In this document: positions 8,927 to 46,001 of the stretch, one piece after another
Layout: each line of letters begins with the position of its first letter
How positions within the stretch are numbered: position 1 is the stretch's first letter
Origin: Minisyncoccia bacterium
Lineage (GTDB): Bacteria > Patescibacteriota > Minisyncoccia > Phycocordibacterales > DATGWK01
Assembly: GCA_038259265.1 (NCBI GenBank)
Contig: JBBSOY010000002.1
Location: 1 to 57,877 of the forward strand
Length of the DNA stretch: 57,877 bases
Reading direction: 5' to 3'
Position numbers and translations under genes: made by a program
The notes under the pieces: generated by a model
The model's database searches: none
Seen by the model: only the letters and a program-made list of their open reading frames with translations
What the model was told of the DNA's origin: nothing

Positions 8927-10042
8927 ATGAGAAAATTTTGTGGGCAGGCGTTTGCTTTTTTAATTTGCAGCGGTGTAGTGTTGGGAACCTTTTTTGGTCT
9001 CGTTTCGTCGGCCTCTGCCCATGAAGCCTACGTGCTTCCGGCCGATACGTTTTGGAACGGACTGCGTGGGCCGATGAGCGGGCATGCATTCGACGCTCTA
9101 AAAAACCCAGACAATATTCGGGTGACTGTGCTGATTGTGTTGTCGGTATGGATGTTGCTCGGACTCAATTTTCTTTTTCGGATGAGTGCGACAGGACAGA
9201 AGGTTCATGCTTTTTTTGAAAGATATTCGAAACTCGGTCCGCATTTTGTGCGCCTGACGATCGCTATCGCTTTTCTTTTTTCGGCGCTCGGCAGCAGTTT
9301 TCTCGGACCGGAGCTGCAAGGGAATCTTTTTCCATATTCGTTTCTTCTTCCGCCGATTCTTTTTGCTATCAGTATCATGATCGCCCTCGGCTTTCTGACC
9401 GAGCTCGCTGCGCTCGCAGGCATCGCCGTGTTCGCTGTCGGTTTTTTTGTGTACGGGCCGTATGTGTTCACCTACCTTAATTATGTTGGCGAGCTGATTG
9501 TTTTGCTTTTGTTTGGCTTGCGAGTATTTTCGCTCGACAGGTATCTCTTTGGCCCTCTCCGCCGTTTCCAGTCTTTTGAAAAATACGAAACAGTCATTGT
9601 CCGAACATTCTACGGTTTGGCGCTTATTTATGCTGCGATCACTGTTAAACTTCTTCATCCAGATCTTACAATGAGCGTGGTGACAACCTGGCACCTGACC
9701 AAGTTTCATTGGCTGTTTCCGAGCGATCCGCTGCTCGTCACTTTTGGTGCCGGTATCGTCGAAGCAGTCATTGGCCTCTTTATTATTTTTGGTTTTGAAA
9801 TGCGTTTGACGGTGCTCATCAGCCTTTTTTACATCACCTTGTCGCTCCTGTATTTCCGAGAATTAGTTTGGCCGCATGTGCTGCTATACGGAATTTCTTT
9901 CAATCTACTTGTTCAGCCGGAAGTTTTCACCCTCGACCATCTCTTTTTCAAAAAACATCTAAAGCACAAATCGTGGTGGAAGCGGCCATTTTCACCACAT
10001 ACAAAAGAGGGGAAAAGCGTCGGCACTCCATTGCCGCTGTAA
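8927..10042 (+). CDS. multi-pass membrane protein (DoxX-like?)
   Basis: 371 aa with a signal-like N-terminus and about 8 hydrophobic helices. Confidence 0.45.
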   Translation: MRKFCGQAFAFLICSGVVLGTFFGLVSSASAHEAYVLPADTFWNGLRGPMSGHAFDALKNPDNIRVTVLIVLSVWMLLGLNFLFRMSATGQKVHAFFERYSKLGPHFVRLTIAIAFLFSALGSSFLGPELQGNLFPYSFLLPPILFAISIMIALGFLTELAALAGIAVFAVGFFVYGPYVFTYLNYVGELIVLLLFGLRVFSLDRYLFGPLRRFQSFEKYETVIVRTFYGLALIYAAITVKLLHPDLTMSVVTTWHLTKFHWLFPSDPLLVTFGAGIVEAVIGLFIIFGFEMRLTVLISLFYITLSLLYFRELVWPHVLLYGISFNLLVQPEVFTLDHLFFKKHLKHKSWWKRPFSPHTKEGKSVGTPLPL

Positions 10043-10097
10043 GAAACGCCTCATGCACGCGTCCTTCTGGGGGTACAAATGTTCGTAATAATTTCAC

Positions 10098-10757
10098 ATG
10101 AATAAAAAAATCATTGGCGGTATTGTGGTGCTCGTGGCGTTGGTTGTCATTTTTGCGGTTTGGATTGGCAGTAAAAATAATTCAGTCGAATATCAGTCTT
10201 TGGTGAAGGAAAAAGACGCTGTGATGATTGCCGACCAAAAGCCAAACAGCGAAGAAACTGTTGTGCAGTATGCGAAGCTTTCGAAGCCTGGGTATATTGT
10301 TATTTATGGCCAAAATTCAAACGGTCAAAAAGGCGAAGTGCTCGGTGTGAGCGATTATTTGCCAGCTGGTGAATATACAAATGTTGTCGTGAAAAGAAGG
10401 AGTGGATCGGGTGGTTCGTCTTCGAATAAACAAAAAACAAATTCTCAAACTCAGACTCAAACCGAGTCTCAGATGGATGTAGAAAATGAAACCGTACTTG
10501 CTCAGATTGTTGAAGATGACGGTGACCAGGTGTTTACCGAAGACTCAGACGCGGTGGTTGTTGATGAGTCTGGTAATCCGGTTGAGTCCGATGCGACCCT
10601 AGATGAAAATGCAGAAACAATCGATACACAGGATGAATTTATCGCTGAGCTTGAGGATGAAGGATATACCGTAGATACTGATGCGGCGGATGATCTCGAT
10701 CTCGACCTCGCTGCGACTACTTCCGAATCAGTCAACACAACTCCAGAAAGTTTTTAG
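10098..10757 (+). CDS. membrane-anchored protein with highly acidic C-terminal tail
   Basis: N-terminal TM, a small beta domain (PGYIVIYGQNSNGQKGEVLGVSDYLPAGEY), then a D/E/T-rich tail. Confidence 0.5.
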   Translation: MNKKIIGGIVVLVALVVIFAVWIGSKNNSVEYQSLVKEKDAVMIADQKPNSEETVVQYAKLSKPGYIVIYGQNSNGQKGEVLGVSDYLPAGEYTNVVVKRRSGSGGSSSNKQKTNSQTQTQTESQMDVENETVLAQIVEDDGDQVFTEDSDAVVVDESGNPVESDATLDENAETIDTQDEFIAELEDEGYTVDTDAADDLDLDLAATTSESVNTTPESF

Positions 10758-10880: not shown

Positions 10881-11249
10881 ATGACCACTATTTTAATTAT
10901 TGAAGATGAGGCCGAGCTTTCGAATGCGCTCAAGGTTAAATTCGAGCGAGAAGATTTTGCGGTAAGTATTGCTGAAGACGGCGAAGATGGTTTGCGCATT
11001 GCGTTGGAAACCCATCCGGATCTGATCGTGCTCGATATAAATATGCCAAAAATGGACGGGCTCACCATGCTCAAACATCTCCGAAAAGACGAATGGGGCA
11101 GCAAAGTGCCGGTAATTCTCCTTACTAACAACGACAGTGTCGAAAAAATGGCCGATGCGGCGGAATTCGAGGCCCTCGAATACATTCTCAAGACAAAAAT
11201 AAAACTCGACGACCTTGTGTCGAATATAAAAAAAAGACTCCAAAAATAG
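10881..11249 (+). CDS. stand-alone response-regulator receiver domain (CheY-like)
   Basis: ILIIEDE...DLIVLDINMPKMDG...PVILLTN...K contains the conserved receiver acidic pocket and the Thr/Lys positions. Confidence 0.85.
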   Translation: MTTILIIEDEAELSNALKVKFEREDFAVSIAEDGEDGLRIALETHPDLIVLDINMPKMDGLTMLKHLRKDEWGSKVPVILLTNNDSVEKMADAAEFEALEYILKTKIKLDDLVSNIKKRLQK

Positions 11250-14125
11250 TGCGCTATAATCAGAGGATGCTATACATCAAAACACCATCTCGTCCTTTGA
11301 TATTTTTTGGCTTCGTCATTGCCTTTGTCGTGGCAGTTGGAGCTATGGTCGGAATTTTTTCGAACGAAGATTTGTCGCCGCCGCTCGTGTTTGGCCAGGG
11401 AATGGACGTAACCGGTCCTGCAGTGAGTATCGTGGCGCCACAACCAGGTCTTTCGGTGTTTGGCCCGCAGGTATTTCTTTCTGCGAACGCTACAGACGAC
11501 GTCGGTGTGGTCGGCGTTCAGTTTAAAAGCAATGGTGTAAATATTGGGAGCGAGGTACCGGCGCCGTTTAACATGAATTGGGATACGACTGGTTTGTCTG
11601 GTTCAAAATCAATTACCGCTGTTGCGCGCGACGCGGCCGGAAACATGACGACCTCGGCACCGGTTTCAGTAACCATTTCTTCTTCAGGGGCTACATATCT
11701 TTCTGCTGGTGGTGGGTTTGGCGGCAACACCGCAATACCAAGCCCAGTCGGCGACTCCGGCGCAGCGGGCTATGCAGCCAAAGCGATTGCTCGTTGGGAC
11801 GTTGTGCCGTTTCAAACTTTTCCAGATACGATAAATGTTGGTGTCGTTGCCTTTCATATTAATGGCATTAGTAAAGTTTCTTTTTCGGCAAACGGTGGCG
11901 CGTGGACGGACGTGACCGACATGAGTATCAATCCCGAAACCAATGTCGCTGAATACTGGACAACCCTCGACGCCTCGGATTTTTCAGACGGACTCGTTGA
12001 GGTTCGGGCAATAGTGTATCCAGTTGTCGGCACAACGCGCGTTTTGCAGGATGCAAGCGGTACTGATGTGGGAGACAAGTCTCTCATGTTGTATGCAAAC
12101 AGCAATGGTTTGCTTGCAAACACCGGCGAGTTTTTGTATGTGTCGGAAGCAGATGGTTCAGATACAACGGGTGCCGGCACATCCGGCAATCCATTTCAGT
12201 CGATCGCAAAAGCACTTGCAACATTTAATGGGGCAGTGGGCAGTTGTGATGGCGGAACAATTTATTTTAAAGCGGGGACTTATGTTTATCCTGACACAGG
12301 GAGCTATCCTGGACTTGGCGGCAATTGCGCTTCGGTCCGATGGCTGACGCTTGAAAATGCACCTGGCACGGCCGAGTCGGATGTGGTTTTTATTCCGCCA
12401 ACTGTTGCGCAGGGTGGAATTTTGGAAGGTAAAATTCACGTGAAAAACGTCACGCTCTTCAATGAAACAAACGATATTATTTTTGCCGAACGTTCAAGTC
12501 CTTATGGCAACATGATCTGGTTGGATTCAGTGCAGAGATACGGAACGGGTTTTGATATGGCGCCAGTGACGACCGCGAGTCCAACAAGTTTTGAAATAAT
12601 TTGGGAGACTGGTACGCAAATTCATGATACTGATTCAGCACTCGGCGACTCGCACATTGTGGCTCGCAACGTTTCGGCGTACAACATCGGTGGTGATTTT
12701 AGTAATTCAAAAAGACTGAGTGCAAATATTTCGGTCGACCATATGCGTTTTACCGGCGGTGTTCATCCGGACGTGGTGCAGGTGCCGATCGGTGCGATTG
12801 AAAATATGATTATTTTTGGTTTGCGCGCGACGGACGTCGCGGCGCAGGGTTTGAACATCGGCGACGGTGGGCAGCCTATGTCGAACGTTGCTGTCGTGAA
12901 CGCATTGCTCGAAAAGGTGCCAGGCGATTTTCAGAATTCATTTTCTGGTGGTGGTATTACGACCGACCATTATCTTTTGTGGCACATCACTCATATAAAC
13001 TACGAATGGCGTTTTGACGGTCGGTCTGGACATACGAATTTGAGTATTCGAAACAACGTTATGCTTGCGACCCCCGAACTCGAGCTCAGCGAATTCGTAA
13101 ATCCAGTCGTCGACAACAATCATTTTATTCTACCCACAACCGCGCGCGGCACCAACTACACGAGCGGTGATCCGTTGTATATCGACGAAGATGCAAAAGA
13201 TTATCGGCCAGCAGATGGTTCGCCGCTTTTGAATCGCATTACGGGTTTAAATCGCGTGGTGACATTTGATCTTGCAGGAAAACCTGTGTACGTTGGCGGG
13301 GCGATCGGCGCGCTGCAAACGCCGTCGACTTTGCCCGACACGACCGCGCCTGGAATTTCTTCGGTTTCAGCCTCGGTTTCCCAAACGGGTGCCACTGTCA
13401 CTTGGACGACTAATGAAGTCGCAGACAGTCAGGTGGAATATGGGTCAAGTGCATCGTATGGTTCAGAGACAAATCTCGATAGCACTCTCACAACATCTCA
13501 TTCGGTTTCAATTTCTGGTTTGTCTGCCGACCATACATATCATTATCGTGTAACCTCAAGCGATGCCGACCAAAATTCTTCGACTTCCGGCGACTTTACA
13601 TTTACAACGGATCGGTCTTCATCGACTGGCGGTAGTCGCGGCGGCGGTGGTGGCAGTCGGGGTGGAGGAGGAAGCAGTGGCGGAAACAGTACAACGACTC
13701 CGCCATACGTTCCTCCGTTTGTTCCTGGTGATACGCAGCCAACCCGAATTCCTGTTTTCACTCGCGACCTTTCTTTTGGAATGTCGGGCTCGGACATAAG
13801 TACCCTTCAAAGAATTCTTATTTCTCTAGGTTTTTTGCAACCTGGTGCAACAGGTGGAAATTTCCAAACATTGACCCGAGCTGCGTTGATGGCGTATCAG
13901 CAATCGCAGGGAATTCTGCCAGCGAGTGGTTTGTTTGGTCCGCTCACACGGGCGGCTATTGAGCGCAGTGCGCCATCTCTTGCATTTACAATTGTGCCTG
14001 GCACTGCGCCAGGTGGTTTGCCAGGAATTTCTTCGCCACCAAACGCTTCACTTTCAGAACTTTTGGTGCAGCTTTTGCAGCAATTAGTGGTTCTCCTTCA
14101 AAGACAAAGAGAGTTGCAAAGATAA
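11249..14125 (+). CDS. giant surface protein: Ig-like + right-handed beta-helix + FN3 + Gly-rich linker + PG-binding domain
   Basis: N-terminal TM and Ig-like VSIVAPQPG...ANATDDVGVVGVQF. The central region looks like a pectate-lyase-style beta-helix. FN3 is TVTWTTNEVADSQVEYG...HTYHYRV. The linker is GGSRGGGGGSRGGGGSSGG. The C-terminal LQRILISLGFL...LTRAALMAYQ resembles PG_binding_1. An alternative start is ATG 11267. Confidence 0.6.
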   Translation: MRYNQRMLYIKTPSRPLIFFGFVIAFVVAVGAMVGIFSNEDLSPPLVFGQGMDVTGPAVSIVAPQPGLSVFGPQVFLSANATDDVGVVGVQFKSNGVNIGSEVPAPFNMNWDTTGLSGSKSITAVARDAAGNMTTSAPVSVTISSSGATYLSAGGGFGGNTAIPSPVGDSGAAGYAAKAIARWDVVPFQTFPDTINVGVVAFHINGISKVSFSANGGAWTDVTDMSINPETNVAEYWTTLDASDFSDGLVEVRAIVYPVVGTTRVLQDASGTDVGDKSLMLYANSNGLLANTGEFLYVSEADGSDTTGAGTSGNPFQSIAKALATFNGAVGSCDGGTIYFKAGTYVYPDTGSYPGLGGNCASVRWLTLENAPGTAESDVVFIPPTVAQGGILEGKIHVKNVTLFNETNDIIFAERSSPYGNMIWLDSVQRYGTGFDMAPVTTASPTSFEIIWETGTQIHDTDSALGDSHIVARNVSAYNIGGDFSNSKRLSANISVDHMRFTGGVHPDVVQVPIGAIENMIIFGLRATDVAAQGLNIGDGGQPMSNVAVVNALLEKVPGDFQNSFSGGGITTDHYLLWHITHINYEWRFDGRSGHTNLSIRNNVMLATPELELSEFVNPVVDNNHFILPTTARGTNYTSGDPLYIDEDAKDYRPADGSPLLNRITGLNRVVTFDLAGKPVYVGGAIGALQTPSTLPDTTAPGISSVSASVSQTGATVTWTTNEVADSQVEYGSSASYGSETNLDSTLTTSHSVSISGLSADHTYHYRVTSSDADQNSSTSGDFTFTTDRSSSTGGSRGGGGGSRGGGGSSGGNSTTTPPYVPPFVPGDTQPTRIPVFTRDLSFGMSGSDISTLQRILISLGFLQPGATGGNFQTLTRAALMAYQQSQGILPASGLFGPLTRAAIERSAPSLAFTIVPGTAPGGLPGISSPPNASLSELLVQLLQQLVVLLQRQRELQR

Positions 14126-33716: not shown

Positions 33717-33745
33717 TTGACAAATAGGTATTTTAGGTGTATACT
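33717..33745 (+). promoter_or_regulatory. sigma70-type promoter of cassette 1
   Basis: TTGACA, a 17-nt spacer, then TATACT. Confidence 0.6.
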
Positions 33746-33779
33746 GGTTAAGTAGTTCTTTGATACCGATTTGCGAGTT

Positions 33780-33827
33780 GGTCATAGCGAAAAGCGGCTT
33801 ACAAATAGGCCTCTCCTCGCTATGACC
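33780..33827 (+). repeat. perfect 11-bp inverted repeat in the cassette-1 leader
   Basis: GGTCATAGCGA, 26 nt, then TCGCTATGACC. Absent from the shorter leader of cassette 2. Confidence 0.7.
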
Positions 33828-33885
33828 ATACCGGCCAATAGTGCCTCCTCGGCGTAGAGGGAAATCAAAATGAAAGGATGACACC

Positions 33886-34305
33886 ATGACACAGATCATG
33901 ACTGCAGCAGAAATCACTGACGGCCAAATCGAAAACGCCGTCAACAAACTCCGCGACGCGATGCGCAAGCATCGTTCCGAGATCACCTCGGATGTCGCCC
34001 AACAGGTTCTCGGGGTCGAGAACCTCGGAATGTTGATGTTCACTCCCTTCCGCGAACGCGCTGAAGCGGTCTCGAACCTCATCGTCCGCAAGGCCACAGT
34101 GAATCGCAGCCGCTTTCCGCAAGAGGCGCTCGAAGCCACTGGTCGCGCGCAGTACACGGACCGCAAGGTCGTGGACGCGATGCCGAAAGGTGAGGGCAAC
34201 GAAGCCGAGGTTGTGTTCTTCAAACCCGACCTCTCGAAGCGCAACGGTTTCATCTCCGATAACGACCTCGAAAAGGAGTTCGATCTCCGTCGCCGCCGTG
34301 AATGA
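33886..34305 (+). CDS. cassette 1, upstream ORF (139 aa, unknown family, GC3-rich)
   Basis: AAAGGA SD 8-10 nt upstream. Paralogous to 41586-41990 (shared ...QQVL..., ...QYT..VV..MP.GEG.E..VVFFKP...GF). Ends at TGA 34303-34305. Confidence 0.6.
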   Translation: MTQIMTAAEITDGQIENAVNKLRDAMRKHRSEITSDVAQQVLGVENLGMLMFTPFRERAEAVSNLIVRKATVNRSRFPQEALEATGRAQYTDRKVVDAMPKGEGNEAEVVFFKPDLSKRNGFISDNDLEKEFDLRRRRE

Positions 34306-34477
34306 AGCCGATCCCGCCTTCGCTGATGAGAAGCCCCACGGCACTCATTGGAAAGATGCCAAGGGCAACTGGTGCTACGCCACGTTCAACCGTTGGGACG
34401 ACAAGCGCGGGGTGTACGTCGACCGCAGCGGCCTCGGCTGGATCGACGGCCGGTGGTTCGCCGGTGTTCGCAAGTAG
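34298..34477 (+). CDS. cassette 1, Trp-rich C-terminal module encoded in the +1 frame
   Basis: ...NEADPAFADEKPHGTHWKDAKGNWCYATFNRWDDKRGVYVDRSGLGWIDGRWFAGVRK is conserved with copy 2, and the differences are synonymous in this frame. The only candidate start is GTG 34298, which lacks an SD. The frame is open from 34190. Confidence 0.5.
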   Translation: MNEADPAFADEKPHGTHWKDAKGNWCYATFNRWDDKRGVYVDRSGLGWIDGRWFAGVRK

Positions 34478-34538
34478 TTCTCAACACTAAGCCACTTAGG
34501 ACTCCGGTCCTTAGAAATGTCCTTCATACTTAGTCCTT

Positions 34539-34575
34539 AGCCCTGTTCCGATTCGTCGGAGCGGGGCTAATTTTT
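34539..34575. terminator. intrinsic terminator (shared with convergent thyX)
   Basis: AGCCCTGTTCCGA-ttcg-TCGGAGCGGGGCT followed by AATTTTT. Confidence 0.7.
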
Positions 34576-35956
34576 ATTTCTGCACAATATCGTGTTCGCC
34601 GCGCTTGATGTCGAAACGGTCTGGGTCGCTGTCGAGATGAATGATGAGGCCCTGATTTTTAAATGTCGTGCCAATCGTATGTGCCATTTGAATCGCGCGT
34701 TTGCGAAGAGTCGTGTGAACGAAACGAGTTGAGCGAAGTTCGGCCAAATAGACAAGCGAATGAAGGGCACCAGTAATTCGGTTTGGCAGTTTGTAACCCA
34801 TCGGGATGTAGTACTGCAACTCTTCTTTTGAAACAGTTGAACCGTCGGATTTTTTAGATTTTTTGAGGCTCTCAATTTTCTTTTTTTGATCAGCGATAAA
34901 AGCAATAGCTTCGCCTCGAAATTTTTCTGGCAGTTCATTTAAATACCATTCTTCAAAACCGTGGCTCATGACAATGAGTGGCATGCGCTGGTTCACTGCT
35001 CGATGACGCTGAATGTCTCGAAAAGAACCGAAGTCGAGAAGAAATTCAAACTGCAGAGTGCCGCATTCGGCGAGTTCTTTTGGGAGCTCGGTTTTTGCTT
35101 TTCGTTCGAGCAAATGGTTTTTATATGTGGCAAGAGTTTTTGTATCGATATCGTTTCGGCTTACTTGGAAATCAACCGCAGCATCGTTGGTGTGATAATA
35201 CAAATCGTTCATCCAATTTTTATTGAAATTTTCAGTCGTTTCAAAACGGGGGTGGCCGAAAGAACTTGGATAGGCTTTTTTGAGCGCGGTTTCAATGACA
35301 TCGGCAACCTGACGAACTTCGGCGAGGGGATGATGTCGCAAACGCATGAGATGGTCCGCTGCCTGACGGAAGTTTGCATGCCAAGCAAGGTTGGTCGAAG
35401 CGCCCGACGGCAAAAAGCCGCGCATGATGTCGAAGGCGCGGGCCTTGATTGCTTTGAGGTAAATTTTTTCGTCCTCATTTTCGCTTCGAGGAAAACGAAT
35501 CTGAAGGTCGGCAATTAAAATTTCGAGGCCGCGCAAATAAAAAGCTCGCCATGATTCCAAAACTTCCGCAGACTCGGCCATGCCGATGGGATCAATAAAC
35601 GCCTGCTTGGCGAAGTCGATGTACCGGGTTGAGGCTTCCTGACCAGAATACAGAGGGAAATCCTGAATGGCCTTGGCGACAAGCATCGAAACACCTTCAA
35701 CAAAAATCGTACCGGTGCCGCAATCGCCAATCGACTTATGTCCGTAGCCCACATAAAAATTGGCCATGAAATTGTCCGAGCCTTTTGCGGCTAAAACTTT
35801 CAAATGACTTTTGATACCGCCGATCGAGCGGGAATGAAGGGCCTGTAGCATCGCCTCGGATTCTGGGCCAATCTGAGCGCCCGTATTTAAAATGAAGACA
35901 AAACCGCCGTTTGGAAGAGGAATTTCGGTGTGAACGATCGATTCGATGTTGCTCAT
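34574..35956 (-). CDS. thyX: long-form FAD-dependent thymidylate synthase (ThyX-like, fused pseudo-dimer)
   Basis: 460 aa. The first half has a ...SGQEASTRYIDF segment (resembling S-x-x-Q-x-S-Q-R-Y). The second half has FRDIQRHRAVNQR (RHR motif). It is flanked by glyA, tmk and dut. Confidence 0.55.
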   Translation of the reverse strand: MSNIESIVHTEIPLPNGGFVFILNTGAQIGPESEAMLQALHSRSIGGIKSHLKVLAAKGSDNFMANFYVGYGHKSIGDCGTGTIFVEGVSMLVAKAIQDFPLYSGQEASTRYIDFAKQAFIDPIGMAESAEVLESWRAFYLRGLEILIADLQIRFPRSENEDEKIYLKAIKARAFDIMRGFLPSGASTNLAWHANFRQAADHLMRLRHHPLAEVRQVADVIETALKKAYPSSFGHPRFETTENFNKNWMNDLYYHTNDAAVDFQVSRNDIDTKTLATYKNHLLERKAKTELPKELAECGTLQFEFLLDFGSFRDIQRHRAVNQRMPLIVMSHGFEEWYLNELPEKFRGEAIAFIADQKKKIESLKKSKKSDGSTVSKEELQYYIPMGYKLPNRITGALHSLVYLAELRSTRFVHTTLRKRAIQMAHTIGTTFKNQGLIIHLDSDPDRFDIKRGEHDIVQK

Positions 35957-36113: not shown

Positions 36114-37310
36114 ATGAAAGCCATGAAAGCCATGAAAGACACTGAAATTTCCAAACTTATCAAAACCGAGCAGGCTCGTCAGAAAAAAGTCATCAATCTG
36201 ATCGCTTCGGAAAATTATGTTTCGGCGGACGTGCTTTCGGCGCTTGGTTCCGAACTCACGAACAAATATGCCGAAGGATATCCGGCGCATCGTTACTATG
36301 GCGGCAATGAAATTTCAGACAAAATCGAAATGCTTTGCCAAAAGCGAGCCCTTAAACTTTTTGGATTGAATGCAAAAGAATGGCATGTAAACGTTCAGGC
36401 ACTTTCTGGGTCGCCCGCAAATCTCGCGGTGTATGTCGCTTTGGTTTCGCCGCACGGAAAAATCATGGGCATGTCGCTCGACCAAGGCGGGCATTTGACC
36501 CACGGCCACAAAGTTTCAGCGACTGGTAAATTTTGGAATCAGATTCCGTATGGTGTGGACCGCAACACTGAAGTCCTCGATTACGAAGAAGTAAAAAAGA
36601 TTGCGCTTGAACATAAGCCAAATATTATCGTCGCTGGTTTCACTGCGTATCCTCGTGAAGTTGATTTTAAAAAGTTCCGGGAAATCGCCGATGCGTGCGG
36701 GGCATTTTTAATGGTCGACATGTCGCACGTGGCTGGGCTTGTAGCTGGTGGGGTATACCAGAGTCCCTTTGCATACGCAGATATTGTGACCACAACCGTG
36801 CACAAAACATTGCGGGGTCCACGAAGCGCCCTTATTTTTGCTCGAAAAGACGCTCGCGAGCTCGACCGAAAAATCGACAAAGCTGTTTTCCCCGGTCTTC
36901 AGGGCGGTCCTCATTTAAATCAAATTGCTGCCGTTGCGGTTGCTCTTAAAGAAGCGGCAACTCCAGCTTTCAAAAAATATGCGAAACAAGTTGTGAAAAA
37001 TGCCCAGGCGATGGCTGGTGAATTGCAGCGGCTTGGTTGGAAAATTATTTCCGGCGGCACGGATACGCACTTGATCCTTATGGATACCTGGATGAAAGAT
37101 AAGGGGCTGCCTGGCAAAGATGCGAGCGATCGTTTGGAGAAAGCGGGGATTATTGTGAATAAAAATACGATTCCATACGAAACTCGTTCGCCGTTTGATC
37201 CTTCCGGAATTCGCCTCGGCACCGCCGCAGAAACGACTCGCGGCCGCAAAGAAAAAGACATGATCGCTATTGCCAGAAAAATCGACGCAGTGTTACGAAA
37301 AAATAAATAA
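36114..37310 (+). CDS. glyA: serine hydroxymethyltransferase
   Basis: LIASENYVS...YAEGYP..RYYGG...HLTHGH...TTTVHKTLRGPR are canonical SHMT motifs including the PLP lysine. Three in-frame ATGs lie at 36114, 36123 and 36132. Confidence 0.95.
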   Translation: MKAMKAMKDTEISKLIKTEQARQKKVINLIASENYVSADVLSALGSELTNKYAEGYPAHRYYGGNEISDKIEMLCQKRALKLFGLNAKEWHVNVQALSGSPANLAVYVALVSPHGKIMGMSLDQGGHLTHGHKVSATGKFWNQIPYGVDRNTEVLDYEEVKKIALEHKPNIIVAGFTAYPREVDFKKFREIADACGAFLMVDMSHVAGLVAGGVYQSPFAYADIVTTTVHKTLRGPRSALIFARKDARELDRKIDKAVFPGLQGGPHLNQIAAVAVALKEAATPAFKKYAKQVVKNAQAMAGELQRLGWKIISGGTDTHLILMDTWMKDKGLPGKDASDRLEKAGIIVNKNTIPYETRSPFDPSGIRLGTAAETTRGRKEKDMIAIARKIDAVLRKNK

Positions 37311-41585: not shown

Positions 41586-41990
41586 ATGGTATCAAAAACC
41601 AGGACCCCATCAGAATGTATTAGCGCAGGACAGATTGGTCAGATCCAGGATCGGATCGGTACCGCTCTCCGAATGAGCGGTCTCCATAACGATCAGGTTC
41701 AACAAGTTCTCCAGACAAAGGGCCGAGGAGACCGGATGATCGAAGATATGATCACTGTGGTCCGCAAGTTCGTTGAGGCAAGGGCGAGCGAGATCGTCCG
41801 TCGGGTCAAGGTGGATCGCACTCTTCAACCCAAGGAGATGCTCGACGCTCTCGGTCGGAAACAGTACACCAATAAGGACGTGGTCAATACCATGCCCCGA
41901 GGCGAAGGTGAGGAAGTCGATGTCGTCTTCTTTAAGCCCGAGCCGGAGGAGTACACTCGGCCTGGCTTCATGAGCGGAACCGGATCATGA
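41586..41990 (+). CDS. cassette 2, upstream ORF (134 aa, paralogue of 33886-34305)
   Basis: Strong SD AAGGAGG. Conserved blocks shared with copy 1. Ends at TGA 41988-41990. Confidence 0.6.
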   Translation: MVSKTRTPSECISAGQIGQIQDRIGTALRMSGLHNDQVQQVLQTKGRGDRMIEDMITVVRKFVEARASEIVRRVKVDRTLQPKEMLDALGRKQYTNKDVVNTMPRGEGEEVDVVFFKPEPEEYTRPGFMSGTGS

Positions 41991-42219
41991 CAAAGCCCTC
42001 GAGCGCCGTAGCCTCAAGCCCGACCCCTATGCCCAAGCCCAGGCTAACAAGGAAGATCCTGCTTTCGCAGATGAGCGCCCCAACTGCAGTCAATGGAAGG
42101 ATGGTGACTCCTACCGCTTCGCCACGTTCAACCGTTGGCGCGGCAAGCGCGAGGTGAACGTCAACCGCGACGACTACGACTGGAGCGACGGCTGGTGGTT
42201 GTCCGGTGTTCCCAAGTAG
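41974..42219 (+). CDS. cassette 2, linker plus Trp-rich C-terminal module in the +1 frame (no start codon)
   Basis: AEPDHDKALERRSLKPDPYAQAQANKEDPAFADERPNCSQWKDGDSYRFATFNRWRGKREVNVNRDDYDWSDGWWLSGVPK. There is no ATG, GTG or TTG anywhere before the conserved block. The frame opens right after a TGA at 41971. Confidence 0.5.
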   Translation, partial: AEPDHDKALERRSLKPDPYAQAQANKEDPAFADERPNCSQWKDGDSYRFATFNRWRGKREVNVNRDDYDWSDGWWLSGVPK

Positions 42220-42337: not shown

Positions 42338-42361
42338 CTTTGTCTGCTTTCTACCGCTCTT

Positions 42362-42390
42362 TTGCCAAAGTGCTTCAAAAACTGTACTAT
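42362..42390 (+). promoter_or_regulatory. candidate ileS promoter
   Basis: TTGCCA, a 17-nt spacer, then TACTAT, 11 nt before ATG 42402. Confidence 0.5.
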
Positions 42391-42401
42391 TCGAGCTACT
42401 T

Positions 42402-45400
42402 ATGGCTGATATCCATACTAAAACTCCTACAAAAAGCCCCGTCGCTTTGGCAGAAGAACAGGTCTTGGCCTTTTGGCGCGAGAAAAATGTGTTTCAAAAG
42501 ACGCTCGACAAAGCGGCGCCGAACGGCAACTATGTTTTTTATGACGGTCCGCCGTTTGCGACTGGTTTGCCGCATTACGGCCACATTTTAATTAGCGCAA
42601 TCAAAGACGCTGTGCCGCGTTACCAAACGATGTGCGGCAAGCATGTTGAACGCCGCTGGGGTTGGGATTGTCATGGTTTGCCGATCGAAAATATTGTTGA
42701 AAAAGATCTGAAAGTTTCTGGCAAAAAAGAAATCGAAGCGCTCGACATCGATGTCTTCAACGAATACGCTCGCAGCCGCGTGCTCGACTTCGCCGATCAT
42801 TGGAAAACGACAATCGAACGCATCGGCCGCTGGGTTGACTATGATGGTGGCTATAAAACGATGGACAACACATTCATCGAATCCGTCTGGTGGGGGCTCA
42901 AAAATATTTGGGATAAAAATTTAATTTACGAAGGCACGAAAGTTTTGCCGTATTGCCCACGCTGCGAAACGCCAATTTCTAATTCGGAAATTGCTATGGA
43001 TGGATCGTACAAAGACATCACTGACATTTCGGTTTATGTAAAACTCGCGCTCGTCGATGAACCGAAAACTTTTCTAATTGTTTGGACGACAACGCCTTGG
43101 ACTTTGCCTGGCAACACTGCTGCGGCCGTAAACGCCGAGCTCGACTACGTTCTCGTAAAATCGGGCGACGAATATTTTATTGTCGCAAAAGACAAGACAA
43201 GTATTTTTAAAGAAAAGTTTGAGATTGTCGAAGAAATGAAGGGAAGTGAGCTTGTCGGTAAAAAGTTCAAGCCGCCGTTTGATTATTTTGAAAACAAGCC
43301 GCTGCCGGGAAAAGAAAACGAAACGAATCGCGAAAATGCCTGGAAGGTATACGCCGCGCCGTACGTTACTGCCGAAGCCGGTTCCGGTATCGTTCATTTG
43401 GCGCCTGCGTACGGCGAAGAAGACATGGCGCTCGCTCGCCAGTTCAACATTCCGTTCATTCGTCACGTCGGTTCGGATGGAAAATTTACGACAGACGTTA
43501 CAGACTTTGTTGGTCTTAAGGCAAAACCAAAAGAAGATCATCAGTCGTCTGATGTGCAGATAATCAAAAACCTCGCGGCTCGTGGTGTGCTTTTTGCAAA
43601 AGAAAAAATTATCCATTCATATCCACATTGTTACCGCTGCGAAACACCGCTTTTCTATTTCGCAATTCCTGCGTGGTTTATCAAAATCCAGGACGTCAAA
43701 AAGGAACTCATAAAAAATAACGAAGACATTACCTGGATTCCTGAGCATTTGAAGCATGGCCGTTTTGGCAAAACCATGGAAGGTGCGCCGGACTGGAATA
43801 TTTCTCGCAATCGTTACTGGGCATCGCCCTTGCCGTTTTGGAAGTGTGACCATTGCGCCGAAACCCTTTGCATTAGCTCGCTCGAGGATATTAAAAAACA
43901 TGCACCAGCTCGAAACACCTATGTGGTCATGCGTCATGGCGAAGCGGAGCACAACCTGACCGACACGGTGAGTTGTCTCGTCACCGACAAAAATGGTTTG
44001 ACCGAAAAGGGTAGAAAAGAAGTGACCGAATCAGCGAAAAAACTCGCAGCAAATCAGGTGGCTGAAGGCGAGGCTTCGTCGAAAGAAAAAGTCAGTTTTA
44101 TTTATGCATCAGATTTAGTCCGAGCAAAAGAAACGGCGGAAATTGTTGCTGCTGAGCTTGGTTTGTCTTCGGACAAAATCGTCTACCTTCCAGATCTCGG
44201 CGAACTTCGGGCAGGAATTTACAACGGCAAAACCTGGACGGAATATCGAAAGTCGTTTGCGAAACCTGAAGATCGTTTTGAAAAAGCACCCGAGGGCGGC
44301 GAAACACTCACCGACATGCGTAACCGCGTTGTAAAAACGCTTTACGATATCGAGCAAAAACATGCCGGCGAAAACATTCTCATCATCAGTCACGGCGAAA
44401 ATATTTTCTTTTTGGAGAATGCCACAGGCGGCGCTTCGAAACAGGATCTGATTTATTCATTTATTCATAAATCAGAATTCCTCGGTACTGGCCAGTCTCG
44501 GCCGCTTGATTTCGCTCCAATTCCGCACAATAAAAATTTCGAACTCGATTTTCATCGACCGTATATCGATGAAATAGTTTTTGCGTGCCAGGGAGCGGGA
44601 GGAAATTCTGGCAGTGGGGCAGGGTCGGGCAAATGCGGAGGCACCATGCGACGTATCCCCGAAGTCGTCGACTGTTGGCTTGAATCTGCTTCCATGCCAT
44701 TTGCTCAAAACCATTATCCGTTCGAACACAAAGAACGATTTGAGAAAAACTTTCCGGCGGATTTTGTAGCCGAATATATTTCCCAGACTCGAACCTGGTT
44801 TTATTATATGCATGCAATTTCGACCATCCTTTTCCAAAAAGCACCATTCAAACATGTGCTGACCACGGGCATCATTGTCGCGGAAGATGGGGAAAAAATG
44901 TCGAAGTCGAAAGGTAATTTCCCCGACCCTCAGCGTTTGTTCGACAAATATGGCGTTGATGCGCTCCGTTTTTACATGCTCAGTTCGCCGCTTGTGAAAT
45001 CTGAAGATCTGAGCTTCACTGAAAAAGGCGTCGACGAAGTCTATAAAAAAATAATCCTCCGCCTCAAAAATACGCTGACTTTTTACGAAACGTATCGCGG
45101 CGAGAGTCGCAAGACAGAAGATCGACTCGTTTCAAAGCATGTGCTCGATCGCTGGATCATCGAACGCATGAACCAGGTGATTTCTGAAGTGACCACCAAC
45201 ATGGAAGCCTATGTGCTCGATCGTGCGCTTTTTGAAATTGACGGGTTTATCGAAGATCTGTCCGTGTGGTTTTTGCGTCGTTCGCGAGAGCGTCTCAAAA
45301 GCGAAAACGAAATCGAACGCAACGAAGCACTCGATACATTTTATTGCGTGCTCGTAGATTTGGCGAAAATTATGGCGCCTTTTACGCCTTTTTTGGCCGA

Positions 45401-46001
45401 ACAGCTATACGCAGCGCTCGATGCTCATGCGGACGGTGGCACAGAAAGTGTTCATTTGGAAGAATGGCCGGATTCGCGCCTTACGCCGGTTGAAGACGTC
45501 GTTATTTTGTCTGACATGATGGAAACTCGTCGCATCGTCAGTCTTGCGCTCGAAGCTCGTGCGAAAGCGAAAATAAAAGTCCGTCAGCCGCTTGCGAAAC
45601 TTGTGGTGAAAACGACGACCCTCGAAAACAAACAAGAATATCTCGATTTAATTCGCGACGAAGTGAACGTCAAAGAAATCGAATTTGATACAGAAATTGT
45701 CGACGAAGTCGTGCTCGATACCGACATCACTCCAGCTTTGCAGGAAGAGGGAAATGTCCGCGAGCTCGTTCGAGCGATGCAGGATCAACGAAAGAAAGCA
45801 GGTTTGAAGGCCGGCGACCAGGCCGAAATTTCTGTTCGAGCAAACGAAATGGGTAAAACATTTATTTTAAAATTTGAATCAGAACTTAAAAAATCCGCAC
45901 TTCTTTCGAACATTATTTTCACCGAAGAAAAACATGTCGAAACCGACGAAACTATTTCAATCGAAGGTATGGAATTTGTGTTTAGAATTAACGGGAATTA
46001 A
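42402..46001 (+). CDS. ileS: isoleucine--tRNA ligase with inserted histidine-phosphatase domain
   Basis: PPFATGLPHYGHIL (HIGH), KMSKS, DWNISRNRYW, DFHRPYIDE and CGGTMRRIPEVVDCW. The start is at MADIHTK (42402); the ORF-track extension back to 42135 overlaps cassette 2. See the finding for the insertion. Confidence 0.9.
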   Translation: MADIHTKTPTKSPVALAEEQVLAFWREKNVFQKTLDKAAPNGNYVFYDGPPFATGLPHYGHILISAIKDAVPRYQTMCGKHVERRWGWDCHGLPIENIVEKDLKVSGKKEIEALDIDVFNEYARSRVLDFADHWKTTIERIGRWVDYDGGYKTMDNTFIESVWWGLKNIWDKNLIYEGTKVLPYCPRCETPISNSEIAMDGSYKDITDISVYVKLALVDEPKTFLIVWTTTPWTLPGNTAAAVNAELDYVLVKSGDEYFIVAKDKTSIFKEKFEIVEEMKGSELVGKKFKPPFDYFENKPLPGKENETNRENAWKVYAAPYVTAEAGSGIVHLAPAYGEEDMALARQFNIPFIRHVGSDGKFTTDVTDFVGLKAKPKEDHQSSDVQIIKNLAARGVLFAKEKIIHSYPHCYRCETPLFYFAIPAWFIKIQDVKKELIKNNEDITWIPEHLKHGRFGKTMEGAPDWNISRNRYWASPLPFWKCDHCAETLCISSLEDIKKHAPARNTYVVMRHGEAEHNLTDTVSCLVTDKNGLTEKGRKEVTESAKKLAANQVAEGEASSKEKVSFIYASDLVRAKETAEIVAAELGLSSDKIVYLPDLGELRAGIYNGKTWTEYRKSFAKPEDRFEKAPEGGETLTDMRNRVVKTLYDIEQKHAGENILIISHGENIFFLENATGGASKQDLIYSFIHKSEFLGTGQSRPLDFAPIPHNKNFELDFHRPYIDEIVFACQGAGGNSGSGAGSGKCGGTMRRIPEVVDCWLESASMPFAQNHYPFEHKERFEKNFPADFVAEYISQTRTWFYYMHAISTILFQKAPFKHVLTTGIIVAEDGEKMSKSKGNFPDPQRLFDKYGVDALRFYMLSSPLVKSEDLSFTEKGVDEVYKKIILRLKNTLTFYETYRGESRKTEDRLVSKHVLDRWIIERMNQVISEVTTNMEAYVLDRALFEIDGFIEDLSVWFLRRSRERLKSENEIERNEALDTFYCVLVDLAKIMAPFTPFLAEQLYAALDAHADGGTESVHLEEWPDSRLTPVEDVVILSDMMETRRIVSLALEARAKAKIKVRQPLAKLVVKTTTLENKQEYLDLIRDEVNVKEIEFDTEIVDEVVLDTDITPALQEEGNVRELVRAMQDQRKKAGLKAGDQAEISVRANEMGKTFILKFESELKKSALLSNIIFTEEKHVETDETISIEGMEFVFRINGN

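Follow-up and report, generated by a model that had tools for sequence, protein, structure and literature searches.

Two orphaned and very probably inactivated target genes of a diversity-generating retroelement family on a Minisyncoccia contig

The 57,877-nt contig JBBSOY010000002.1 of a Minisyncoccia bacterium (assembly GCA_038259265.1), the whole of which is the window analysed here, contains a GC-rich cassette (cassette 1) between dcd (PF22769 and PF22569 by Pfam) and thyX (PF02511). Its 139-aa open reading frame (ORF) ends at a TGA, beyond which coding sequence extends in the +1 frame as far as 34477; an earlier note on this DNA had reported both parts, which are present, and had suggested recoding. 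A second copy lies at 41586-42219, is 44% identical to copy 1 and also continues in the +1 frame after its stop codon (TGA 41988-41990). With high confidence, we regard cassette 1 and copy 2 as two orphaned, recently inactivated target genes of a diversity-generating retroelement (DGR), and not as a recoding device. The coding parts of the two copies, including the variable regions (VRs) that were compared with the template repeats (TRs) of relatives, are as follows.

33886 to 34305, plus strand: truncated reading frame of copy 1, 139 aa, with TGA at 34303-34305; equals residues 1-135 of a ~206-aa protein, then RRRE
34281 to 34290, plus strand: deletion junction of copy 1, where one CGATCTCCGT is left and relatives have two CGATCT(G/C)CGT copies
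34283 to 34477, plus strand: C-terminal 64 codons of the ancestral protein and TAG, now in the +1 frame (protein and DNA alignments)
34373 to 34473, plus strand: VR1, homologous to the TR of the family
41586 to 41990, plus strand: truncated reading frame of copy 2, 134 aa
41972 to 41978, plus strand: frame break of copy 2, AGC GGA ACC against GFMS-D/E... in relatives; dropping one G restores GFMSEPDHDKALERR
41974 to 42219, plus strand: C-terminal part of copy 2 in the +1 frame, with VR2 (42115-42215) and TAG (TR comparison)

In copy 1, the +1 frame has no stop codon between 34190 and TAG 34475-34477, and its translation reads ...ISVAAVNEADPAFADEKPHGTHWKD...RWFAGVRK. The conceptual fusion of both frames matched 582 homologues, and figures on lengths and coverage refer to the best 120 of them. 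It turned out that almost all of these 120 are 202-221 aa long and cover 98-100% of the fusion in one frame, and almost all of the 22 genomic loci also read through in a single frame. The record titles of the relatives are those of Patescibacteria of the candidate phyla radiation (CPR), e.g. Paceibacterota, Taylorbacteria and Zambryskibacteria. The protein is conserved except for about 12 scattered columns in the last 35 residues, which follow the pattern ATFxRWxDxRxVxVxRxxxGWxDxWWFAGVRK, and in the protein alignment the hypervariable columns are restricted to the VR1 stretch. The earlier view that the +1-frame tail is ancestrally coding and part of the same protein is borne out by its in-frame conservation in homologues, and the synonymous differences from copy 2 that were cited for it (ccc/cct, gcc/gct, gct/gca, aaa/aag) are present. 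The suggested recoding did not survive: the split is shared by no homologue, and nearly all of those listed are single ORFs of ~206-211 aa. Pfam, PHROGs and NCBIfam contain no family for the two conceptual fusions or the intact homologues; tblastn against INPHARED phages gave no match and IMG/VR contigs gave no relative. The gene of cassette 1 encodes the variable (target) protein of a DGR; its family, which the earlier note had not recognised, is restricted to Patescibacteria/CPR.

The frame change of copy 1 coincides with a deletion relative to the homologues. In the DNA alignment with loci L001 and L004 of relatives, these read GAGTT-CGATCTGCGTGGCCTCAAGCCCGCTGACC-CGATCTCCGTCGCC and the window reads GAGTT-CGATCTCCGTCGCC. 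Copy 1 is short by exactly 29 nt, that is, one 10-nt direct repeat CGATCT(G/C)CGT plus the spacer between its two copies, and the downstream sequence is therefore moved into the +1 frame. The junction expected with the 29 nt kept would read ...CGATCTGCGTGGCCTCAAGCCCGCTGACCCGATCTCCGT..., and the missing nucleotides encode ...GLKPADP..., part of ...R-GLKPADP-ISVAAVNEADP... in relatives (protein alignment). The conceptual fusion is thus ~10 residues short, and four of the lost ones (L, P, D, P) stand in columns conserved to at least 90%. Loss of one repeat unit with the intervening sequence is what is seen in slipped-strand deletion pseudogenes. It had been proposed that a one-base miscount in the cgtcgccgccgtg run could explain the split, but the break lies outside this run.

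Copy 2 is broken in a different way. Its comparison with relatives gives two high-scoring segment pairs in different frames, which meet at residue 130, and the sequence around this point suggests that the break is probably one extra G (a 1-nt insertion). The two breaks are independent and not homologous (alignment residue ~130 in copy 2, ~135 in copy 1). The closest relatives of copy 2 (P0121, P0122 and P0123, with identity of 74%, 67-68% and 66%) are intact proteins of 209-211 aa. Its C-terminal motif is WWLSGVPK instead of the conserved WWFAGVRK, while in copy 1 the near-invariant WW has a W-to-R replacement through a non-adenine change. The indels aside, substitutions at conserved columns number 3 in copy 1 (of 108 columns) and 6 in copy 2; the family median is 3, and neither count leaves the family range. 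Relaxed selection was tried as a pseudogene test on these counts and was given up; with so few changes they show only that any inactivation is therefore recent.

The pattern of differences between VRs and TRs is adenine-specific. As there is no TR in the window, its VRs were compared with heterologous TRs from relatives: among the 14 positions at which VR1 and the TR of L007 differ, 13 are adenines in the TR, which has 28 A in its 101 nt (Fisher p = 5e-8), and VR2 shows 14 differences from a relative's TR, 10 of them at adenines (p = 3e-4). Generally, 13 VRs of the family (VR1 of the window and eleven relatives included) differ from the TR at 10-20 adenines and at 0-3 other bases. In L028, all differences between TR and VR (10 of 10) are at adenines. 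Within the TRs, adenines cluster in AAC and GAC codons. Both VR1 and VR2 have undergone diversification in the past and have one non-adenine scaffold in common, so one TR may have served both.

Relatives carry the machinery that such a pattern needs. For example, L001 contains the target gene (10001-10633), a 101-nt TR that repeats the 3' end of the target (11021-11121), a divergent gene for a 146-aa Avd and a reverse transcriptase (RT) with an RVT_1 match. The set target-TR-Avd-RT was found in at least 10 distinct relatives (L001, L007-L010, L014, L017, L021, L023 and L028), and the TR in relatives of the family resembles TTCAACCGTTGGAACGACAAGCGCAAGGTGAACGTCAACCGC. The Avd of L001 matches PF22296 (bAvd) with 44 bits (cutoff 40) and NF033474 (DivGenRetAVD) with E = 2e-18, which is under the curated cutoff of that model; L028 also carries a bAvd gene. 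The RTs of L001, L007, L010 and L028 match RVT_1 and contain LGNLTSQ and YADD, of which the former fits (I/V/L)GxxxSQ, the hallmark motif 4 of DGR RTs (PMC3521204). In L004, L006, L011, L015 and L018 there is no TR or RT within several kilobases of the target, so these are remote targets.

The system resembles known DGRs, i.e. BPP-1 (Mtd/TR/Avd/Brt) and the 'clade 2' DGRs restricted to Patescibacteria (Roux et al. 2021, PMC8144416), in that the target ORF has its VR at the 3' end, with a conserved hairpin after it, in the clustering of TR adenines in AAC and GAC codons and, in relatives, in a TR with adenine-only differences, an Avd and an RT with (I/V/L)GxxxSQ and YxDD. CPR DGRs form their own clade and their targets typically have no recognisable domains (PMC8144416); here, too, targets lie both beside the RT and remote from it and have no transmembrane or Pfam domain. 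Unlike such DGRs, the window has targets alone, without TR, Avd or RT, and both targets are frame-broken. The order also differs: BPP-1 has avd-TR-brt with a spacer 3' of the TR, while in relatives of the family the TR lies between target and Avd, Avd is divergent from the RT, and the conserved non-coding part appears to be 5' of the TR.

On this basis, an intact element of the family would work as follows. The intact gene encodes ~206 aa and has its last ~100 nt as VR; ~450 nt downstream there is a near-identical TR, and after it come the Avd gene, in divergent orientation, and the RT. The RT would copy TR RNA into cDNA, with wrong bases put in opposite adenines, and this cDNA would take the place of the VR. 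In this way ~12 codons, most of which are AAC or GAC in the TR, would be rewritten on the fixed scaffold ATFxRWxDxRxVxVxRxxxGWxDxWWFAGVRK. Copy 1 would have lost its 29 nt by deletion between the 10-nt direct repeats, so that its C-terminus with the VR is no longer in frame. The frame of copy 2 would have been broken independently, probably by insertion of 1 nt, and the TR-Avd-RT core that L028 has next to the copy-2 orthologue is missing here.

An adenine-mismatch-tolerant TR scan, a scan for YxDD-containing ORFs (>200 aa) and tblastn queries with RT and Avd proteins from relatives revealed no TR, RT or Avd in the 57,877-nt contig. To the window between 36 and 48 kb, L028 is syntenic in the order glyA, dUTPase, argS, NUDIX, target, [TR-bAvd-RT], ileS, hydrolase and recO. 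Homology with L028 covers the target and its 3' untranslated region through the terminator (window ~42341) and restarts at ileS. The ~1.8 kb of spacer, TR, Avd and RT in L028 is replaced in the window by 58 nt between the terminator of copy 2 and ileS:

42346 to 42403, plus strand: probable spacer remnant, 58 nt, with collinear motifs CTTCAAAAA and TATTCGAG, also AGCTACTT

Aligned with the spacer of L001, this stretch scores 42, against 24.8 +/- 3.8 for shuffles (0 of 300 reach it); the L028 spacer gives a weaker signal, with 11 of 300 shuffles reaching the score. The stretch is probably a remnant of the DGR spacer. The most parsimonious order of events would be a deletion of the DGR core in this lineage, with inactivation of the two targets afterwards; we infer that the core was lost here, not gained in L028.

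Several points weigh against this interpretation. Errors in the assembly or its consensus could account for the 29-nt deletion and for the extra G, and both tails are open and well conserved, which fits a very recent inactivation and an artefact as well. Another DGR core may exist on other contigs of the genome, and the direction of change, loss here or gain in L028, draws on parsimony and a weak 58-nt remnant. Besides, Foldseek searches of the PDB and BFVD with an AlphaFold2 model of the intact homologue P0002 gave no match at E <= 0.001 and none to the C-type-lectin variable proteins of DGRs, in which the modelled target differs from known systems; a profile search of PDB sequences also gave nothing relevant for the target protein. 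The model is of good quality (pLDDT, the predicted local distance difference test, 88.5; pTM, the predicted template modelling score, 0.81) and has a helical N-terminus and a C-terminal order of strand-helix-helix-four strands, the last three strands of which are covered by the VR. Presumably this order of elements resembles a minimal C-type lectin fold. The alternative that the VR of this family may sit on a scaffold without a recognisable C-type lectin fold, as a further structural solution for DGR variation, appears doubtful to us.

The strongest rival explanation is that both genes are intact ~206-aa targets, whose 29-nt gap and extra G arose from assembling or polishing a mixed population. 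DGR targets are polymorphic and can confuse assemblers, and the conservation of both open tails is within the normal range of the family. The deletion allele is also unique, its protein cluster having one member on one contig, and exact and degenerate forms of the junction had 0 matches in JGI metagenome contigs, a weak negative as this collection also does not contain the window's own contig. On the other hand, the indels are outside the VRs (at least 83 nt upstream of VR1), replication slippage typically produces such a loss of 29 nt between 10-nt repeats and short-read assembly error does not, and other long genes of the window are intact (ORFs of 958, 735, 707 and ~1200 aa). The loss of TR-Avd-RT at the syntenic site is an independent sign of decay. 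We consider the artefact unlikely, and we take the deletion to be biological and not an assembly error.

Programmed +1 ribosomal frameshifting at UGA (GAA UGA A in copy 1, UCA UGA C in copy 2), giving a full-length product as in prfB (RF2), has almost no probability left. As in prfB, the zero-frame ORF of both copies ends at UGA and conserved sequence continues in the +1 frame. Unlike prfB, the shift site is not conserved: the breaks lie at non-homologous positions (~135 and ~130) in different contexts, and no aligned homologue or genomic locus is broken at either site. Direct reading of ...CGC CGU GAA UGA A and ...GGA UCA UGA C found no slippery codon of the CUU-U type and no Shine-Dalgarno-like (GGAGG-like) stimulator upstream. 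The break of copy 1 is a 29-nt deletion, and a frameshifted product, with the conserved residues missing, would not be collinear with the family. Equally improbable are two separate genes, with the tail translated by translational coupling from the +1-frame GTG 34297 that overlaps the TGA (GTGAATGA), since this codon goes back to the ancestral gene, where, as in all homologues, it specifies the internal Val of ...AAVNEA..., no Shine-Dalgarno site stands ahead of it, the tail frame of copy 2 has no ATG, GTG or TTG until deep within VR2, and the homologues listed never encode two genes.

Taken as orphaned DGR targets, the two genes replace an apparent recoding signal by a deletion in a known kind of gene and remove a false lead. 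They represent a known kind of system in a degenerate state, and their value is that they allow the family to be annotated and exemplify DGR decay, the core being gone from a syntenic position and each of the two orphaned targets having been inactivated independently. This bears on how often hypermutation systems have been switched off or lost in streamlined symbiont genomes. For the family, it means that hundreds of Patescibacteria 'hypothetical proteins', unmatched in Pfam, NCBIfam and PHROGs, can be named as DGR variable proteins. The data leave two family-wide questions, neither of which is specific to the window: the unmatched predicted fold and the conservation of synonymous sites.

The latter concerns the composition of the target gene. 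Cassette 1 had been described as a discrete unit rich in GC and in GC at third codon positions (GC3), and its values (GC 0.58-0.65, GC3 0.73-0.81) are indeed distinct from the GC3 of 0.46-0.49 in the neighbours dcd, thyX and glyA. The foreign origin suggested from this is not supported, because high GC3 (0.73-0.75) is typical of the target gene in every host examined, L001:10001-10633, L004:10001-10621 and the window copies being among those measured, and is hence no sign of recent transfer. The avd and RT of the same element are host-like, with GC3 of 0.38-0.43, while the target has ~0.75 in hosts of 42-46% GC. At four-fold sites, targets differ between genomes by 0.10-0.39; among L001, L007 and L010 the values are 0.16-0.29 for targets and 0.60-0.70 for RTs. 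The four-fold sites of targets are 3-6 times less diverged than those of the adjacent RT; nucleotide-level constraint or selection, or separate lateral exchange of a target+TR module, might account for this and for the high GC3.

The promoter, leader inverted repeat, Shine-Dalgarno site and terminator that had been noted for cassette 1 are all present. Its non-coding features are listed here.

33717 to 33745, plus strand: sigma-70-like promoter of cassette 1, TTGACA-17-TATACT, 11/12 consensus matches
33779 to 33828, plus strand: leader hairpin, 23-nt arms 83% complementary, with perfect 11-bp core GGTCATAGCGA/TCGCTATGACC
33873 to 33888, plus strand: Shine-Dalgarno AAAGGA (33873-33878) and ATG start at 33886, read from the sequence
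34486 to 34534, plus strand: nested stem-loop just 3' of VR1, outer stem ACTAAGC/ACTTAGT, inner hairpin GGAC-TCCG-GTCC (34499-34510)
34537 to 34580, plus strand: intrinsic terminator, hairpin 34537-34570 and then a T-run, kept with the gene in most relatives

In the DNA alignment, homology among relatives starts ~25 nt 5' of the ATG and extends beyond the stop codon. The promoter-side upstream region is not conserved among relatives, so the promoter is specific to the cassette 1 locus. The 139-nt leader folds with -49.9 kcal/mol (z = -4.9 against shuffles), and its hairpin is specific to the window, as the leaders of L001 and L004 are shorter and without hairpin. Rfam gave no match at gathering thresholds in the whole window, and around cassette 1 just a chance-level microRNA match on the leader hairpin. 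The leader (33750) and the stop codon region (34472) share a 10-nt repeat, AAGTAGTTCT, but its reading as a possible element boundary was set aside: ~0.4 such pairs are expected per 900 nt, it is not conserved in L001 and L004, and it is probably a chance match. In the stem-loop at 34486-34534 and in the terminator, base pairs are preserved via two-sided changes among relatives. A hairpin or cruciform 3' of the VR is used in target recognition by a subset of DGRs (cited in PMC3521204), and by analogy the stem-loop at 34486-34534 may act in the same step.

Some further observations concern the DGR loci of relatives. Between the target terminator and the TR there is a spacer of ~250-300 nt (L001:10740-11020, L028:8760-9005), which is conserved across DGR loci, e.g. 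in GGCAGTAGG(C/T)GAATATGC and GAGTATTCGAGG; the conserved non-coding part of the TR RNA thus appears to be located 5' of the TR. At these loci the TR is directly followed by a bidirectional terminator shared with avd. Within the 5' end of the Avd gene of L001, between the divergent avd and RT, a perfect (TGAC)x13 array (11496-11547) encodes SVSQ repeats, and slippage in it would shift the Avd frame and could serve as an on/off switch of DGR activity. L001 and L002 are assemblies of one contig, with Avd of 146 and 145 aa and RT of 316 and 336 aa. In L017, tandem targets (116-685 and 1099-1716) precede one TR (2074-2165) and RT, and the first of them (P0090) has an aberrant, extended C-terminus.

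Besides, several neighbouring genes in the window have features of their own. Between argS and NUDIX, the window encodes an ORF6N-domain protein (PF10543; 40447-40998), of a family common in phage and mobile elements, where L028 has a Fic-domain gene. The ileS of L028 has a His_Phos_1 domain inserted between tRNA-synt_1 segments, and the window ileS (42404-46001) is its counterpart by tblastx collinearity. The product of thyX (34574-35956, minus strand) is unusually long, 460 aa, with two stretches matching Thy1. The start of glyA (36114-36147) contains a 9-nt tandem repeat, ATGAAAGCC x3.7, which gives MKAMKAMK.

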